From an uncultured Marinicella sp. (GTDB lineage Bacteria; Pseudomonadota; Gammaproteobacteria; Xanthomonadales; Marinicellaceae), in contig CANNBS010000002.1 of NCBI GenBank assembly GCA_947502925.1, forward strand, positions 25,079 to 89,078: a stretch of 64,000 nucleotides of DNA, read 5' to 3'. The position numbers were made by a program, and so were the translations under genes. Below are positions 12,046 through 19,432 of the stretch, in pieces. A model generated the notes under the pieces. That model was not told the DNA's origin. It made no database searches and worked only from the letters and a program-made list of their open reading frames with translations. Within the stretch, counting starts at the first letter, position 1, and the number at the start of each line of letters is the position of its first letter.

Positions 12046-12142
12046 ACAAGTCAGATTTGTATAGAGGTGATTCTTATTTTGACAGAACATGCTTTATAAA
12101 GTAGGCCGTTAATTGATGAAAATAAAAAAAATAAAAAAAGTT

Positions 12143-12172
12143 TTGATTATTTTTTTAAAACCGTGGTACATT
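12143..12172 (+). promoter_or_regulatory. Putative sigma70 promoter of arg leader/operon
   Basis: TTGATT (12143-48), 18-nt spacer, extended -10 TG-G-TACATT (12164-72), preceded by an A/T-rich UP-like tract. Confidence 0.6.
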
Positions 12173-12197
12173 ATGCTCAAATCATATTAATTAAACG

Positions 12198-12308
12198 ATG
12201 ACACATAACAACGACAATTTTTCTTTTATTCAAAAAGCATTGATTGGAAACAGTGCAGTGGTTGTTCGTCGTCGCCGTCCGGAAAAGACAATGGAGCTCT
12301 TTGGCTAG
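12198..12308 (+). CDS. Putative arg operon leader peptide, 36 aa: MTHNNDNFSFIQKALIGNSAVVVRRRRPEKTMELFG
   Basis: Hand translation; CGT CGT CGC CGT at 12267-12278; the stop codon abuts the antiterminator arm; too short for the ORF track. Confidence 0.8.
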   Translation: MTHNNDNFSFIQKALIGNSAVVVRRRRPEKTMELFG

Positions 12309-12351
12309 ACGCGTGATTTAAAGAAATATTTTAAAAACCCGGCCAAAGAGC
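12296..12351 (+). promoter_or_regulatory. Putative antiterminator hairpin of arg attenuator
   Basis: GCTCTTTGGC (12296-12305) is perfectly complementary to GCCAAAGAGC (12342-12351), which spans both arms and the loop of the terminator. Confidence 0.8.
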
Positions 12352-12362
12352 CGGGTTTTTTT
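12333..12362 (+). terminator. Attenuator intrinsic terminator upstream of argF'
   Basis: AAAAACCCGGC-CAAAGA-GCCGGGTTTTTTT; lies between promoter/leader and the argF' start, on the same strand. Confidence 0.88.
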
Positions 12363-12397
12363 ATACCCGGTTAATTTGGCTTTATTCAGGACTGAAC

Positions 12398-13414
12398 ATG
12401 ATAAAGCATTTTTTAACCACTGAAGATTGGTCACAAACACAGCTAGACGTGCTTTTGGCTGATGCGAATCTCCTTAAGCAAAATCCAATTCAAAGTCATT
12501 TGAGTCATAAGTCGATGGCTTTGCTATTCTTTAATCCATCGATGCGAACCCGGACATCATTTGAACTCGGCATCCAACAATTGGGCGGTACAGCCATTAT
12601 TTTAGAACCGGGTCAAGGTGCATGGGGTATTGAATTTGAACCCCATAGCATTATGGATGGAGATGCGGAAGAACATATTAAAGAAGTGGCCGGCGTCTTA
12701 TCTTCCTATGTTGATATGATTGCTATTCGTGCTTTCCCTGCCTTTAAGGATTGGCAGATTGATCGTTTAGATCACAAAATCAAAGCCTTGGCAGCACATG
12801 CAACCGTACCGGTTATTAATATGGAAACCATTGTTCATCCCTGTCAGGAATTAGCGTTGATGATGACCATCAAACAACATTTTAAAGTGGTTAAGCGCAA
12901 GAAATTTCTTCTAACCTGGACATATCATCCGAAACCACTGAACACCGCCGTCGCTAATTCCGCCTTACTGATAAGTAGTAAGTTTGGTATGGACGTGACC
13001 TTATTGTGTCCCAATGAGAATTATTTATTGGATGAAAAATACCTGACAGCCGCCAAAGCACAATGTGATGAACATGGTGCTGATTTTACTGTGTCCCATG
13101 ACATTGAATCAGCTTATGCAGAGGCTGATTTTGTGTATGCGAAAAGTTGGGGCGCTTTACCTTTTTATGGTAATCCGAGCAATGAATTTGAACAACGTAA
13201 ATACTTTAAACACTTTAGGGTTGATGGTCAGAAAATGGCACTAACCAATCAAGCCAAATTCAGTCATTGTTTGCCGCTTCGACGAAATATTAAAGCCACT
13301 GATGAAGTGATGGATGCGCCTTATTGTGTGGCGTTAGAAGAAGCAGAGAATCGATTACACGTACAAAAAGCCATGATGTTGAATCTCATGGGTCATCAAT
13401 TAAAACAATCATAA
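12398..13414 (+). CDS. argF': N-acetylornithine carbamoyltransferase (AOTCase)
   Basis: FFNPSMRTRTSF, HPCQ, LTWTYHPKPLNTAVANS, HCLPLRRN: AOTCase-type motifs rather than canonical OTCase (STRT/SMG). Confidence 0.9.
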   Translation: MIKHFLTTEDWSQTQLDVLLADANLLKQNPIQSHLSHKSMALLFFNPSMRTRTSFELGIQQLGGTAIILEPGQGAWGIEFEPHSIMDGDAEEHIKEVAGVLSSYVDMIAIRAFPAFKDWQIDRLDHKIKALAAHATVPVINMETIVHPCQELALMMTIKQHFKVVKRKKFLLTWTYHPKPLNTAVANSALLISSKFGMDVTLLCPNENYLLDEKYLTAAKAQCDEHGADFTVSHDIESAYAEADFVYAKSWGALPFYGNPSNEFEQRKYFKHFRVDGQKMALTNQAKFSHCLPLRRNIKATDEVMDAPYCVALEEAENRLHVQKAMMLNLMGHQLKQS

Positions 13415-13427
13415 GAGAGAAGATTTC

Positions 13428-14630
13428 ATGAATAAAAAAACAATTGTATTGGCATTTTCCGGTGGTTTAGACACCAGTTACTGTTTGTATCATCTCACGC
13501 AGCAAGGTCATGATGTTCATACTGTATTTGTTAATGCCGGCGGTGTTGATGCGGACGAAGTTAAGCGAATTGAAGAACAAGCTGAACGACTGGGTGCTCA
13601 TCAACATCATTGTTTGGATGCTCAGCAGAATATATGGGATGAGTTTGTTAAACCATTGATTTGGTCGAAAGCCAAGATGCGAGATGAATATCCTTTACTA
13701 TGTTCAGATCGCTACGTGATTGTGAAATTATGTCTACAGCTGTGCGATCAATTGGGAACGTCTTATTTTTCACATGGGTGTACAGCCATGGGTAATGACC
13801 AATTCCGCTTTGATCAAACAGTTCATTCACTTGGCAAGTATGACATTATTGCGCCAATTCGAGATTTACAGGCTCAAGTTAAGGGCCATATTCGAGATCA
13901 TGAGTTACAGGTGCTTAAAGCAGCCGGTTTCGAAATGTCCGGTCAGCATAAAAAGTACTCCATTAATGAAAATATGTTGGGTGTGACCATATCAGGCAGC
14001 GAAATTGATGCGTTTCAAGCACCCGGTGAAGACAGTTTGCATTGGGTTAAACCGAAAGTTGCCTGGCCGGATAAAATCTTAGATTTAGAAATTGGTTTTA
14101 ACCAGGGAGTGGCCACTCATTTAAATGGAGAAGCCATGGCAGGTCCGACACTTTTAAAACAGTTAAACCAGCAACTGGCTCAATATGGAATAGGCCGTCA
14201 CATTTACACCGGCGATGTCAGTATTGGATTAAAAGGTCGCATTGTTTTTGAATGTCCCGGTATTGATGCTTTGATGCAAGCTCATAAAGCCTTAGAAGAC
14301 TTGGTTAATTCAAAACTGCAAAATGAATTCAGGGGAGATGTTTCAAAACGTTGGGCAGATCTGGTCTATCAAGGCTTTTTCTACGAACCCCACAAACAAG
14401 ATTTAGAAGCTTATTTAAGTAGTTCGCAATCACATGTAACCGGAAAGGTTTCCTTGAGTACTGAGGGTGGTTGCTTGTTGGCGACATCAGTGGATTCTGA
14501 CTTTATTATCCAAGACCCACAATCGGTCTATGCACAATCCGCAGCCTGGTCACCACAAGAAGCCTTGGGCTTTATAAAACTAACAGGGCAAAGTGCCACG
14601 CTGGTCAATCAGGTTAGGAGACAGTCATGA
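13428..14630 (+). CDS. argG: Argininosuccinate synthase
   Basis: VLAFSGGLDTS, HGCTAMGNDQFRF, YSINENMLG motifs. Confidence 0.95.
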   Translation: MNKKTIVLAFSGGLDTSYCLYHLTQQGHDVHTVFVNAGGVDADEVKRIEEQAERLGAHQHHCLDAQQNIWDEFVKPLIWSKAKMRDEYPLLCSDRYVIVKLCLQLCDQLGTSYFSHGCTAMGNDQFRFDQTVHSLGKYDIIAPIRDLQAQVKGHIRDHELQVLKAAGFEMSGQHKKYSINENMLGVTISGSEIDAFQAPGEDSLHWVKPKVAWPDKILDLEIGFNQGVATHLNGEAMAGPTLLKQLNQQLAQYGIGRHIYTGDVSIGLKGRIVFECPGIDALMQAHKALEDLVNSKLQNEFRGDVSKRWADLVYQGFFYEPHKQDLEAYLSSSQSHVTGKVSLSTEGGCLLATSVDSDFIIQDPQSVYAQSAAWSPQEALGFIKLTGQSATLVNQVRRQS

Positions 14631-15757
14631 ATCAAACTAAGGTTTTACAAGCAAGCAATAACAGCAATAAAAATGCCTTTTTAGCGATTAAAAAACACCT
14701 GTCTTTCCTTATAAGCTGTGATACTTGTAACCCACCACGAACAATTCGATTCACAGATCCTTTGTTTGTTGGTCTTGAAGCTTATTTTAAAAGTCAGGGA
14801 TTTACCGTAACAATGGCTGATTTCGGTGAAGGGCACGTGGTATTTTATGCCGTAAGAGGTAGGCCCAAGGTATTATTTAATGTTCATTTAGATACCGTTC
14901 CTGTGTCTGATGGTTGGCACTATGATCCTTTTAATTTGACTGAATCTAAAGGTCGTTTTTATGGTCGTGGTAGTTGCGATATCAAAGGTGCGGCAGCCTG
15001 TTTAATGGCGCTGGCTGAAACACAAGAGAATAGTAAAGAGTATGATATGTCTGTGCTATTCACAACAGATGAGGAAGGTCTTGATAGTTGTTGTATTAAA
15101 CATTTTATTGATGCCCATGATTTATCCGGATATCAACAGGTCATTGTGGCAGAACCCACTGAATGCCTGGCGATTACTGAGCATCGAGGTTATGTATCGG
15201 CTCACGGTAAATTTAAGGGAACCAGTGGCCATTCCTCTTCTGTAGATGCGTTGACAGGAAATGCAGTGCATCAGGCAAATCTATGGCTAACTGATGCGTT
15301 GACAATAGCACAGCAATCTCAAACAAGTACAAATCCAGCGGGTATATGTTTTAATTTGGGTTACATTAAAGGCGGTGAAAAAAATAACATGATTGCTGAA
15401 TAGTGTCAGCTTGGTTTTAGTGTTCGAGTGCCTGCCGGATCATCATCAACGACAACCTATAATTCATTAATTAATGTTAATCAAAGTGGAGCGACATGGC
15501 GTTGCTCACTAATGGCTCCGGCTTTACCTGAACATGCCTTTGGCAACCAAAAATCCATTGATTTTTGTCAGCAACATGGACTCGAACAAGGTAATCCTGT
15601 TGATTTTTGGACCGAAGCCTCATTATTTAATCAGGCGGGACTTCCTGCATTGGTATTAGGGCCAGGTAACATTGCCCAGGCACATACAGTGGATGAATGG
15701 GTGGCTATCGACCAGCTGCTTAAATGTTATGCAATATATCAAGGGGTTATTCAATGA
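14627..15757 (+). pseudogene. argE: Acetylornithine/acetylcitrulline deacetylase (M20) interrupted by in-frame TAG at 15401-15403
   Basis: NVHLDTVP, GRGSCDIKG, TDEEG, VAEPT in the first part. The frame continues past TAG (CQLGFSVRVP..FWTEAS..GPGNIAQAHTVDE). Confidence 0.85.
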
Positions 15758-17145
15758 AAAGCAGCAAATATAATACACAAACTAAACAACAGATTATACG
15801 CAGTGCTCTGAATCAATTAACCCATAGTCAGGAAGCCAAACATTATTTAAAACGCTATCAAAATCATGATGAAATGAACTTTGCAGTGGTTAAGGTGGGT
15901 GGTGGTACTTTGGCGGATGAATTAGAGATTCTGGCTGAATCTTTGGCTTTATTATCTCACTTGGGGTTAAATCCCATTGTTATACATGGTGCCGGGGTGC
16001 AATTGGACAAAGGATTAGCGCATGCTGGTATAAAAACTTCCAAAAAAAACGGCATGCGTGTCACAGATGAAGCTTGTATGAAAGTCATTAGGCCTGTTAT
16101 GTATGATGTTAATCATCAATTGGTTCGCGCCTTGGAACAACAGGGTGTTCGGGCTTACGGTGTGGTGCATGGTGTCTTTGAATGTCGATATTTAGATCAA
16201 CAAACGTATGGCTTAGTGGGTGATGTTGAAAAAATTCATTTGTCACCCATAAAACAAGCGATTCAAACAGGCTCTATTCCGGTGTTAAGTTGTCTGGGAG
16301 AAACGGCCAGTGGCCAAGTGCTGAATATTAATGCCGATGTCGCCACTCGGGAGCTTGTGTGGAAAATTCATCCGCATAAAATTATTTTTGTGACGCCAAC
16401 CGGTGGCATACTCGATAATAAAAGTGACATTATTTCAGCGATTCAGTTGAATAATGATTTTGATTATATGATTCAACAGCCTTGGTTACATTCAGGCATG
16501 AAGCTTAAATTACAACAAATTAAAGACATGCTAGCACCTTTGGATTGTGGTCACTCAGTTTCCATTACTTCTAGCAAGAATTTGGCTAGAGAACTCTTTA
16601 CATACAAAGGTGCCGGTACTTTTATCAATATGGGTGAAAAAATCAATGAAAGTTTGGAGTTGGATCAGTCAAATCTGTCTTTATTGCATGCCATTTTTGA
16701 AGATGCCTTTGGACGTACTTTTAAGACTGACTTTTTATCTAATCTGAAAATAAAAAAAATCTATTTGGCTGAGTCGGGCAGGGCAGCAGCCATTATCTCA
16801 TCGGGCTTTCGTAATCACGCATACTTACATAAATTTGCAGTTACTAAAGCGGGACAGGGTGAAGGTTTGGCAGCCAGCTTGTGGCAACAGATTATTAAAG
16901 ATTTCCCTCAGTTATATTGGCGATCCCGGACAAATAATGATATCAATGATTGGTACTTTAAACAGGCGGATGTGTCGGTTAAATCAACAGCTGGCGATTG
17001 GGTGGGGTTTTCATGTGGTTTATTCCCGGCGGAATCATTGGAGTGCATCCAACAGGCTTTTAAGGTTGATTCGGGCTGGCAGTCGATACAGGAACAAACA
17101 ACTGTGTCTATTCAACAGAATGTAAAAGAGGCGCACCATGTCTAA
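15754..17145 (+). CDS. argB: Acetylglutamate kinase domain fused to NAT/DUF619 domain (NAGS/K type)
   Basis: VVKVGGG, IHGAG, NINAD in the AAK domain; YLHKFAV, LYWRSR..N.INDWYF in the NAT domain; start ATG 15754 overlaps the argE stop. Confidence 0.88.
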   Translation: MKSSKYNTQTKQQIIRSALNQLTHSQEAKHYLKRYQNHDEMNFAVVKVGGGTLADELEILAESLALLSHLGLNPIVIHGAGVQLDKGLAHAGIKTSKKNGMRVTDEACMKVIRPVMYDVNHQLVRALEQQGVRAYGVVHGVFECRYLDQQTYGLVGDVEKIHLSPIKQAIQTGSIPVLSCLGETASGQVLNINADVATRELVWKIHPHKIIFVTPTGGILDNKSDIISAIQLNNDFDYMIQQPWLHSGMKLKLQQIKDMLAPLDCGHSVSITSSKNLARELFTYKGAGTFINMGEKINESLELDQSNLSLLHAIFEDAFGRTFKTDFLSNLKIKKIYLAESGRAAAIISSGFRNHAYLHKFAVTKAGQGEGLAASLWQQIIKDFPQLYWRSRTNNDINDWYFKQADVSVKSTAGDWVGFSCGLFPAESLECIQQAFKVDSGWQSIQEQTTVSIQQNVKEAHHV

Positions 17146-18121
17146 ACGCATAAAAGCTGCAATTATTGGTGCTCGGGGTTATGTGGGCGTTGAGCTGATA
17201 AAACTTTTGGATTTGCACCCAAAAGTTGATTTAAAAGTCGCTTTTTCAAGGTCTTATGAAGGCCAAAAGGTCAGCACTGTGGTCAGTGGCTTTTCTGATA
17301 ATCAATTAGAGTATCAATCAGATGATTTGAATGTTTTGCAAAACATGTCATTGGATGTGATTTTTTTGGCATTACCTGATGGTATAGCTAAGAGGCATGA
17401 TGACTTGTGGCGTTTCATGGCAAAAGATACTGTTATTATTGATCTTAGTGCTGATTATCGTTTTGATAATAATTGGGTGTACGGGCAGCCGGAAACCAAT
17501 AAACATAATCTAAAACGGGCTAAAAAAATCGCTAACCCGGGATGTTATGCGACCGGAATTCAAATGGGTTTAAAGCCTTTACTGCCATACTTAAAAGGCA
17601 CTACGCATGATGTGCCCACGGCATTTGGTGTTTCCGGTTATAGTGGAGCAGGGACTCAGCCGTCCAATAAAAATGACCCTGATCGATTAGCGGATAACTT
17701 ATTGGCCTATAAGGCCACAGGACACACTCATGAAAATGAAGTGAGTCATGTGTTACAACATACGATACGATTTATGCCACATGTGGCCGCTCATTTTAGA
17801 GGTATTCACATCACTTTGTCAGGTCAACTTAAGGCGCCAATGTCTGAAGAAGGAATGTTGGCGCTGTTTAATGAATTTTATGCAGATCATACACTGATAA
17901 AAATCCAGTCCAATCCGGCAGAGATTCAACAAATCAAAAACAAGCATCATATGATTATGGGTGGGTTTACAGTATCTAAACGTGAGCCCGGACATTTTGT
18001 GTTCAATGTATGTTTAGATAATTTATTAAAAGGGGCAGCCACTCAGGCTGTGCAAAACATGAATTTAGCATGTGCACACGATTTTCAGACACAATGCTTT
18101 GAAGGTATTAATTATGAGTAA
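17138..18121 (+). CDS. argC: N-acetyl-gamma-glutamyl-phosphate reductase
   Basis: IIGARGYVG, IDLSADYR, IANPGCYAT, DNLLKGAATQAVQNMN. Confidence 0.95.
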   Translation: MSKRIKAAIIGARGYVGVELIKLLDLHPKVDLKVAFSRSYEGQKVSTVVSGFSDNQLEYQSDDLNVLQNMSLDVIFLALPDGIAKRHDDLWRFMAKDTVIIDLSADYRFDNNWVYGQPETNKHNLKRAKKIANPGCYATGIQMGLKPLLPYLKGTTHDVPTAFGVSGYSGAGTQPSNKNDPDRLADNLLAYKATGHTHENEVSHVLQHTIRFMPHVAAHFRGIHITLSGQLKAPMSEEGMLALFNEFYADHTLIKIQSNPAEIQQIKNKHHMIMGGFTVSKREPGHFVFNVCLDNLLKGAATQAVQNMNLACAHDFQTQCFEGINYE

Positions 18122-19432
18122 TAAACATATTAACAATAAAAATATTCAATCTGTCTTGTGGTCAGGTGATCATCAGGATATGGATGATGCCGTAATGCGA
18201 TATTTGGCCGGTGATGATATCTGCTTGGATCAAGCTTTATTTTTATATGACATAAAAGGGACGGGGGCTCATTTAGTGGGTCTGGCTGACATTGGAATAA
18301 TATCCGATGATGAATGTAAACAGTTTTTAGCTGCACTGGAGCAATTGAAAAATGCATTTTTGACTCATGAGTTTGTATTAGACCAACGGTTCGAAGATGG
18401 CCATTCAGCCATTGAGTTTTACTTAACGCAGGAATTAGGCGAGTTGGGCAAAAAAGCCCACACCGGGCGATCAAGAAATGATCAGGTCTTAACTTGTTTG
18501 CGGTTATTTATGAAGGATCAAATGGGTTTGTTAAAACATGAGGTGGCTGAGGTTATTGAGGCTTTGTTATCTCTTGCTGAAGTTCATGAACATACCTTGA
18601 TGCCGGGTTATACTCATTTACAAAGAGCCATGCCAAGTACTGTGGCAGTATGGTTACTAGGTTTTGCTGAAAGTTTACTGGATAATTTACAGCATTTAAA
18701 TCATATGATGGATTTAATTGATTCTTCTCCCTTGGGTACGGCGGCCGGATTTGGGGTGCCTTTACCCTTAGCGCGTCAAACCACCGCCTCAGAAATGGGG
18801 TTTTCTCGGGTACAAATTAATCCGGTTGTGCCCAAAATACACGGGGAAAATACGAATTGATGACTTTGCATAGCTTGTCTTACCTTATGTCAGATGTTCG
18901 AAGATTTTCTTGGGATTTAAGTTTATTTATGAGTAGTGAGTTTGACTTTATTAAACTGGCTTCTTCACACACCACAGGTTCTTCTATTATGCCTAATAAG
19001 AATAACCCGGATATCGTTGAGATGATGCGGGCAGGTTTGTCTGTGGTTGAAGGTGCAATCCAACAAACCCAGTCTTTACTCTCATTACCCAGTGGTTATC
19101 AAAGAGATTTACAGTTAAGTAAAGAACCGATATTAAAAGGCATGGAAATGACTCGTCAAACATTTGCCTTGCTACCGGGCTTGTTAACGGCAATGCATTT
19201 TAATCAAGATAAAATGACTGCAGCCATAACACCTGAAATGATGGCCACAGATCGTGCTTTAAAGAAAGTTCTGGAAGGCCAATCGTTTCGAAACGCTTAC
19301 TTAGACTCTAAACAAACGGTTCAATCTGATATGACGGCTGAACAATCCGTTGCTGAACGGGTTTCATTAGGCGGCGCAGCCAATTTAGGTCTTGATGTTC
19401 TTAAAAAACGTTTTGGGTCATTGATTGATTAA
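18114..19432 (+). pseudogene. argH: Argininosuccinate lyase split by a 1-nt frameshift near 18825-18830
   Basis: HTGRSRNDQ and MPGYTHLQRA in part 1; TTGSSIMPNKNNPD in part 2; the shifted frame gives AQNTRGKYELM, linking both halves. Confidence 0.88.

Follow-up and report, generated by a model that had tools for sequence, protein, structure and literature searches.

The stretch of DNA analysed here (64,000 nt of contig CANNBS010000002.1 from an uncultured Marinicella sp., assembly GCA_947502925.1; hereafter the window) contains an arginine biosynthesis operon beginning with argF', the gene for N-acetylornithine carbamoyltransferase, preceded by a short leader with a run of arginine codons, a terminator and a second RNA pairing that competes with it. 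We propose that this leader is a ribosome-mediated, arginine-specific leader-peptide transcription attenuator of the argF'GEBCH operon, an interpretation that we hold to be probable (roughly 80%). As read from the sequence, the region has the anatomy of such an element, with a leader open reading frame, a cluster of the cognate codons, a terminator, an antiterminator that excludes it, and a spacing that would allow a ribosome to mask one antiterminator arm. The features of the locus, all on the forward strand, are as follows.

12143..12172, + strand: predicted sigma-70 promoter, read from the sequence and its conservation in relatives
12198..12308, + strand: leader-peptide upstream open reading frame (uORF) of 36 codons plus TAG (ATG at 12198, TAG at 12306-12308)
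12267..12278, + strand: Arg run CGT CGT CGC CGT, followed by CCG (Pro); the only Arg residues of the uORF
12296..12306, + strand: predicted antiterminator 5' arm (region 2), consisting of GCTCTTTGGC and the first base (T) of the TAG, from complementarity and the minimum free energy (MFE) fold
12333..12362, + strand: predicted intrinsic terminator (A5, GC stem, loop, T7)
12363..12380, + strand: conserved post-terminator block (ATACCCGG at 12363-12370, TTTGGC at 12375-12380), from six Marinicella-type sequences
12398..19432, + strand: the putatively regulated operon argF'-argG-argE-argB-argC-argH, from NCBIfam matches

The uORF has the conceptual translation MTHNNDNFSFIQKALIGNSAVVVRRRRPEKTMELFG and is preceded by an A/U-rich 5' untranslated region of about 19 nt. 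The final 10 nt ahead of its TAG, GCTCTTTGGC (12296-12305), begin 18 nt after the last Arg codon and are perfectly complementary to GCCAAAGAGC at 12342-12351; a T12306-G12341 wobble can lengthen this helix, which has a duplex energy of −16.5 to −19.9 kcal/mol (−19.9 with the wobble extension) and is present in the MFE fold of the leader. The terminator is composed of an A5 tract (12333-12337), a stem of CCCGGC (12338-12343) and GCCGGG (12350-12355) closing a CAAAGA loop (12344-12349), and a T7 tract (12356-12362), with a core hairpin energy of −11.3 kcal/mol, or −16.6 kcal/mol with an A:U extension, and it ends 35 nt before the argF' ATG at 12398. The antiterminator 3' arm (region 3, 12341-12351) takes up the inner part of the terminator stem and the entire loop, its 12342-12351 portion including the two base pairs closest to the loop. 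An earlier sequence-only reading of this DNA had proposed a 36-codon uORF with Arg residues only at 12267-12278, a terminator 35 nt before argF', and a perfect 10-bp antiterminator with its 5' arm ending at the uORF stop, and all three lie where it had placed them. Among the 34 terminator-like sites on both strands of the window only one, that of the leader, is preceded by an Arg-run uORF, and in dinucleotide shuffles of the 160 nt ahead of this terminator a short ORF with at least four Arg in six codons occurs by chance in 1% of cases.

The same reading had pointed to promoter-like hexamers. These are present, with a −35 element TTGATT at 12143-12148, an 18-nt spacer, a TG at 12164-12165 characteristic of an extended −10, and TACATT at 12167-12172, and the TTTG and TGnTACnTT blocks are kept in five Marinicella-type relatives; however, the hexamers are weak, scoring 8/12 against consensus, and because this falls under the threshold they do not appear in the output of the consensus scan. 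Transcription would start near 12179, as deduced from the position of the promoter. The consensus scan also missed the main terminator, reporting only an alternative hairpin at 12349-12372; the promoter and main terminator were both located with purpose-written scripts.

The post-terminator block carries second copies of the terminator 5' arm and of the last part of the antiterminator arm, and in predicted folds of the read-through RNA its ACCCGG pairs with the CCGGGU of the freed terminator 3' arm. Among the compared leaders it is not conserved outside the Marinicella lineage. The block may steady the read-through fold or influence argF' translation.

Conservation of the leader across argF' loci

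Sequences upstream of argF' were searched at 80 loci from GTDB species genomes (labelled L001-L080) by a terminator-anchored procedure, a leader being called where a uORF with at least three Arg in six codons ends no more than 80 nt upstream of the terminator. An Arg-run uORF, an antiterminator arm near its stop and a terminator before argF' are present in 66 of the 80 loci, in genomes spanning 32-65% GC, giving a set of 67 leaders with that of the window. In the 66 loci the uORF has a median length of 34 codons and ends 23-54 nt from the terminator. The 14 exceptions include two contig ends and six Wenzhouxiangella loci, five of these six being without a terminator-like site and one without an Arg-run uORF; coding-like sequence extends to argF' in the four whose upstream sequence was read. 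L069, L028 and L020 failed or nearly failed the automatic test, yet have Arg-rich short ORFs upstream of argF' (MRIIQVCHRSRNIRSRKIKPR, ...LRRRRRAQPGW.. and ...IRLRRRFSDIRAG, respectively), and the family may be wider than the number counted.

Runs of at least three Arg number 67 in the 67 leaders against 13.5 expected from dinucleotide shuffles, and runs of at least four number 31 against 2.3 expected; Arg is alone among the amino acids in forming runs common to all of the leaders. The span between run start and T-tract end measures 91-118 nt (median 101.5), and the stop codon follows the run at a median of 24 nt. The peptides otherwise differ by lineage (Marinicella, AVVVRRRRP..ELFG; Wenzhouxiangellaceae, IRRLRRPG..; Kangiella, IRRRRRS..; Rhodanobacteraceae and Xanthomonadaceae, ..LTSARAAAGMTSRARRP....AG), and all types share nothing beyond the Arg cluster and the stop position. 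The LTSARAAAGMTSRARRP segment is kept nearly to the nucleotide in Rhodanobacteraceae loci, which suggests further RNA structure there. None of the 80 loci has the genes that lie upstream of the window leader, whereas 77 have argG after argF', and the leader thus belongs to, or travels with, the arg operon.

Among six Marinicella-type sequences the ATG, frame and stop of the uORF are kept while its N-terminal half diverges, and the Arg run is invariant apart from a single synonymous CGT to CGC change. That change is in one of three sequences from a metagenome scan, in which 241 million records were searched with a pattern combining the Arg run and a T-tract; only three of the 117 matches have the short ORF and hairpin, and all three of these, which are among the six Marinicella-type sequences, lie directly upstream of argF'.

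Region 2 duplicates the terminator 3' arm in most lineages (GGCCGGGU, GGCUGGGU or GCCAGGUU), within or just past the end of the uORF, and roughly half of the loci have their stop codon immediately next to it (GGCCGGG-UAG). The Marinicella lineage differs in that region 2 pairs with the terminator loop and inner stem; this arm is kept in all six Marinicella-type sequences, its sole change being a C/T (C/U) substitution that preserves a G-U pair. In almost all loci the antiterminator arm is close enough to the stop to be reached by a terminating ribosome: it lies between −20 and +20 nt of the stop in 64 of the 67 leaders, and as much as 32 nt beyond the stop in the other three (L044, L068 and L069), whose automatic calls are doubtful. 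Across the leaders the antiterminator duplex has a median energy of −19.5 kcal/mol. Rhodanobacteraceae loci (for example L036, L057, L070 and L075) have an additional conserved pairing between GGCUGUCGC just past the stop and ACGACAAAA just before the terminator, which lengthens their antiterminator and brings its energy to about −25 kcal/mol.

The terminator 5' arm and its antiterminator partner show three-way covariation, the pairs being G-C in 34 loci, A-U in 12 and CCUGG/CCAGG in two, with four wobbles and five mismatches as exceptions. In a MAFFT alignment of 44 leaders the terminator is 98% paired with a covariation score reached by none of 500 shuffles, and the antiterminator is 76% paired in register but 46-52% when slid by one column; the alignment misplaces the antiterminator arm in about 12 rows, which lowers the formal pair count. 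The recurrence of the Arg run and the covariation of the stems are in line with the sequence-only reading, which had proposed aligning argF' upstream regions from relatives.

A covariance model (R1) was built from 40 non-Marinicella leaders, among them the Pseudoxanthomonas leader L068, which matches the Rfam family RF02242. It matches the window at full length (12258-12361, model positions 1-113) with a score of 49.5 bits and an E-value of 3e-10. The runner-up is the same terminator on the minus strand (12333-12361, 21 bits, E 0.0013), and the best match elsewhere in the 64 kb has an E-value of 0.065. Judged by this match the window leader belongs to the extended arg-leader family, and across the loci compared the element is best described as an order-wide family, including Xanthomonadaceae, Rhodanobacteraceae, Wenzhouxiangellaceae, Kangiellaceae and Marinicella.

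The choice of Arg codons is strongly skewed. CGU, CGC and CGA, which are decoded by the inosine-containing tRNA-Arg(ICG), make up 224 of the 234 run codons (96%) in the leaders of the sampled loci and the window. CGA, normally a rare codon, contributes 32% of run codons but 6% of Arg codons in the adjacent argF' coding regions, a five-fold enrichment, and CGG and AGR together contribute 4% as against 26%. This bias fits sensing of the charging of a single isoacceptor and would be hard to explain were the peptide alone important.

Ribosome position and the proposed switch

The leader RNA was folded with ribosomes masked at different positions, taking the RNA to 12355 with the U-tract considered as still within the transcription complex. 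With the A site of the ribosome placed over the stop codon the terminator probability is 0.995, whereas a ribosome on any of the Arg codons gives an antiterminator probability of 0.49-0.69, which becomes 0.99 when folding is restricted to the RNA on its 3' side. The sequence-only reading had put forward folding with and without the ribosome footprint as a check, and the expected switch was obtained, with the terminator formed at the stop and the antiterminator favoured at the Arg run. Its claim that the spacing of region 2 suits masking by a ribosome likewise agrees with the stop-codon fold and with the near-constant spacing across the family.

The sequence elements, their spacing, conservation and covariation, and the predicted folding switch emerge from the sequence analysis itself; from these we infer translation of the uORF, coupling of the ribosome to RNA polymerase, stalling and the response to arginine. 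Transcription would begin at about 12179, with a ribosome on the 36-codon leader following close behind the polymerase. When Arg-tRNA is ample the ribosome would reach the TAG at 12306, its footprint would cover region 2 (12296-12306), and regions 3 and 4 would then form the terminator, stopping transcription at the T7 tract (about 12360) and setting free a leader RNA some 180 nt long. When charged tRNA-Arg(ICG), which reads CGU, CGC and CGA, is scarce, the ribosome would stall on 12267-12278. Because the leading edge of the stalled ribosome would fall about 8-17 nt short of region 2, this segment would be free to pair with 12341-12351, blocking the terminator stem and allowing the polymerase to enter argF'.

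Several observations weigh against this interpretation. The uORF of the window has no Shine-Dalgarno sequence ahead of it. The naked RNA is ambiguous, with an antiterminator probability of 0.72 when taken to 12355 but 0.01 when taken to 12358-12362, and if the U-tract is allowed to pair with the A-tract the equilibrium favours the terminator in every ribosome state. Because of this last result the termination decision would have to be kinetic, made co-transcriptionally, as in other attenuators; the untranslated RNA is predicted to lie near a balance point and not to be fixed in its terminator state. For GC-rich relatives, shuffled sequence often yields an antiterminator duplex at least as strong as the real one, and a swap control between terminator classes gives a difference of only about 2-3 kcal/mol; given the weak shuffle z-scores in these genomes, the argument therefore rests on position and covariation. 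The loop-type antiterminator of the window is backed by invariance in six close sequences, with no compensatory changes, and the counts of loci and of codons ignore kinship between loci. A 1:2 pause-type pairing suggested by the sequence-only reading can be drawn (CGUC...GACG), but is weak and seen only in the terminator-state MFE fold, and we found no convincing conserved 1:2 protector hairpin in the leaders; a 5' hairpin in the fold of the leader, formed between the start region and the Arg codons, is not conserved in relatives. A further point concerns the Xanthomonas homologue described below, whose cloned RNA has its 3' end about 8 nt upstream of the terminator hairpin and not at the U-tract.

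Related systems and alternative explanations

Arginine biosynthesis is the textbook case of control by the ArgR repressor, T-box leaders serve arg genes in Firmicutes, and to our knowledge arginine is not on the usual list of amino acids whose genes are attenuated through leader peptides. ArgR with its ARG boxes and the Arg T-boxes share with the leader described here the feedback control of arginine-related genes, and T-boxes also sense the charging of tRNA-Arg; however, neither a T-box match nor a significant ARG box nor an argR gene is found in the window, and the proposed sensor is the translating ribosome. With the classical trp, his, leu, thr, ilv and phe attenuators the leader shares a uORF with a run of end-product codons, a terminator before the first structural gene, an antiterminator overlapping that terminator, and a stop codon placed such that a terminating ribosome would mask region 2. 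It differs from them in the amino acid and in its argF' (acetylornithine-route) operon, in having no clear 1:2 protector hairpin, in the Marinicella-lineage antiterminator pairing with the loop and inner stem and not the whole 5' arm, and in the apparently leaderless or nearly leaderless form of several arg-leader lineages. The Rfam Trp_leader, His_leader, Leu_leader and Thr_leader models match the window only below threshold, at 18-20 bits against gathering thresholds of 41-55.

The Xanthomonadaceae form of this leader is already in Rfam as RF02242, 'Xanthomonadaceae sRNA Xoo5'. L068 matches this family with 117 bits (2749-2872), and Rhodanobacteraceae leaders match it below threshold (L033 at 42.7 and L052 at 36.6 bits); the window has no match to it even at E≤10, the gathering threshold being 50 bits, and the only Rfam matches of the window leader at E≤10 are sub-threshold, terminator-driven matches to small RNA (sRNA) and leader families. 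The RF02242 consensus begins 2 nt ahead of an AUG and encodes MTSRARRP...AG-stop, and the Rfam model ends before the terminator. sRNA-Xoo5 was found in Xanthomonas oryzae by cloning, 5' rapid amplification of cDNA ends (RACE) and Northern blot as a 124-nt RNA with bands of about 130 and 100 nt whose forms vary with growth phase, and it lies between PXO_00354 and PXO_00353, the latter encoding N-acetylornithine carbamoyltransferase (Liang et al. 2011, PMC3039613); a transcription start site for the homologue in X. campestris pv. vesicatoria was seen subsequently (Schmidtke et al. 2012, PMC3300014). Both papers are silent on a uORF, on arginine and on attenuation. Thus sRNA-Xoo5 has the same position directly upstream of the N-acetylornithine carbamoyltransferase gene and belongs to the same R1 family as the window leader, but has been described only as an orphan small RNA, and the window leader itself does not match RF02242. 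In L018 and L056 a −10-like hexamer lies about 8 nt ahead of the leader ATG. Because of the RACE-derived 5' end and this −10 placement, the leader peptide is apparently translated from leaderless or near-leaderless RNA in several lineages. RNA-derived contigs from a Pseudoxanthomonas-like organism span the leader and argF', although these are weak evidence, giving presence only and no 3' ends.

The sequence-only reading was not aware of any classical Arg-codon attenuator described before. We found no described Arg-codon attenuator of arginine biosynthesis in the literature searched, which left many subscription-journal surveys uncovered (for example comparative genomics of 2004-2010), so that an earlier prediction is possible; however, the RNA had already been catalogued in Xanthomonas as RF02242/sRNA-Xoo5, though never as an attenuator. 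What would be new is the use of arginine as the amino acid of a well-known kind of attenuator, in an element previously catalogued only as an orphan sRNA. The closest precedent is the orf34-speF leader of Salmonella, in which two Arg codons report the arginine supply (Ben-Zvi et al. 2019, PMC6386406). This orf34/SpeFL leader of speF-potE in Salmonella and E. coli shares the consecutive Arg codons, ribosome pausing, and a choice between alternative mRNA folds made by ribosome position, but it serves polyamine synthesis, it works by Rho-dependent termination, decay by RNase G and blocking of the ribosome binding site (RBS) instead of an intrinsic terminator and antiterminator (PMC6386406), its peptide is conserved, and it has no sequence or family match to the window leader, whose downstream genes are arg genes and not speF. 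Cys-codon uORF attenuators are a comparable case of a newly recognised amino acid being added to leader-peptide attenuation, some of them also leaderless, as in the mycobacterial leaderless poly-Cys small ORFs (bioRxiv 10.1101/834739) and the Rhodobacterales cysS uORFC-8-2 (PMC8632094), differing in amino acid, carrier clades and controlled genes.

Four other explanations were weighed against attenuation. The element could be an independent trans-acting sRNA gene of the Xoo5 kind with its own promoter and terminator, in which the Arg run is incidental or encodes a small basic peptide with a function of its own. Rfam types the Xanthomonadaceae homologue as 'Gene; sRNA', Xoo5 accumulates as a discrete RNA of about 100-130 nt with growth-phase-dependent forms (PMC3039613), and attenuator-derived RNAs and peptides are reported to work in trans in Sinorhizobium, as with rnTrpL/peTrpL. 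We nevertheless consider this explanation very unlikely, as sequence outside the structural arms is poorly conserved, including that of the peptide N-terminus, while the frame, Arg run and stop position are kept across 32-65% GC, and as the element invariably sits directly ahead of argF' in the same orientation, irrespective of which gene precedes it; the contigs that span leader and argF' also argue weakly against it. A trans role of the leader RNA besides attenuation is possible. It could alternatively be supposed that the nascent Arg-rich peptide senses free L-arginine or ornithine in the ribosome tunnel, like the fungal arginine attenuator peptide, TnaC or SpeFL, and that tRNA charging is not what is sensed. 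Arrest at the stop would keep the ribosome on region 2 and so have the right sign, giving more termination at high arginine, most leaders carry an RRxRR(P) motif, and SpeFL/orf34 is a precedent for sensing by Arg-containing leader peptides. Against this, nothing beyond the Arg codons is conserved between lineages, the middle residue of the motif being any of L, N, V, P, E, D, K and A, with divergent C-termini; where C-terminal residues are conserved the RNA arm explains them (for example GGCCGGG-TAG), the enrichment of CGA and avoidance of CGG and AGR point to tRNA decoding, and four representative peptides gave no NCBIfam match to SpeFL or any other leader-peptide family. Such a peptide-based sensor seems highly improbable.

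Stalling on the Arg codons might also act through mRNA stability, Rho or access to the argF' RBS, with the hairpin serving as a constitutive or insulating terminator. Salmonella orf34-speF is a precedent (Ben-Zvi 2019, PMC6386406), and in the full-length RNA the block at 12363-12380 can pair with the terminator 3' arm, suggesting more conformers downstream. However, this block is confined to the Marinicella lineage, whereas all 67 leaders have a canonical terminator between uORF and argF' (a GC stem and T7 in the window) with a mutually exclusive arm at the stop, an arrangement typical of terminator/antiterminator control, and we find a mechanism of this kind very doubtful. Finally, an in-frame TAG (15401) interrupts argE and the reading frame of argH shifts near 18825, so that both look broken and the leader might be a decaying relic, or its resemblance to an attenuator a coincidence, which together we judge extremely improbable. 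Coincidence is ruled out by the conservation statistics, namely the shuffles, the terminators of the window, the metagenome scan and the R1 match. The relic explanation was rejected, being largely refuted by metagenome contigs of the same organism that carry intact readings of argE and argH and a leader changed only from Ile to Thr in its variable N-terminus, to which the R1 match adds.

Attenuation through the charging of tRNA-Arg, if correct, would account for the arginine feedback of a large group of Gammaproteobacteria that includes plant pathogens and soil and marine genera, and would give the orphan Rfam family Xoo5 a function. It would offer about 70 natural variants for studying how spacing, the choice of CGA and leaderless translation tune an attenuator, and would correct genome annotation, as these leader peptides are without an NCBIfam model: four representative peptides have no NCBIfam match at E≤10. 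A more far-reaching combination is that this is the first Arg-specific attenuator class, ancestral to the Xanthomonadales/Lysobacterales-Kangiellaceae-Marinicella group, that it replaces ArgR as the main control, that it is tuned to tRNA-Arg(ICG) through slow CGA codons, and that its terminated product (Xoo5) is also a trans-acting RNA or basic peptide like Sinorhizobium rnTrpL/peTrpL; taken jointly, these claims strike us as unlikely.

The arg operon and its surroundings

The operon downstream of the leader is a Xanthomonas-type arginine operon, with the following genes, all assigned by NCBIfam matches.

12398-13414, + strand: argF' (N-acetylornithine carbamoyltransferase; 521 bits)
13428-14630, + strand: argG
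14627-15757, + strand: argE, interrupted by an in-frame TAG at 15401-15403
15724-17145, + strand: argB, fused to an acetyltransferase-like C-terminus
17138-18121, + strand: argC
18072-19432, + strand: argH, frameshifted near 18825

The nearest genome, that of Marinicella marina, has an ArgF' 82% identical to the one encoded here. Public metagenome contigs from the organism of the window have a C at 15401 (CAG) in three runs (X1, X2 and X3) and an additional T after 18825 in two (X1 and X2), and because they restore both argE and argH the operon is intact in the population; the disruptions in the window are either strain-specific lesions or assembly errors. The leader in those metagenome strains differs solely by Ile16Thr.

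ARG boxes are not significantly represented in the window, with 36 matches against 32 expected by chance. The sole match in the promoter region is isolated, has three mismatches and lies in an AT-rich tract (12142-12159), where the tandem boxes expected for ArgR control are not found. No argR was found in the window by tblastn with an ArgR probe sequence, and the window has no T-box or other Rfam leader family above threshold; its only match at an Rfam gathering threshold is a tRNA gene at 2063-2136. A short minus-strand ORF ending ...KKAFLLLLLLACKTLV, at about 14600-14640, precedes a terminator-like site in the argG/argE junction, and is probably a chance feature of the antisense strand. In X2, a sponge metagenome, some contigs match only the A-rich segment 12117-12150 or only the 33-nt terminator 12333-12365 and then continue into unrelated sequence; this hairpin is apparently also present at further loci, or in further organisms, of the sample.

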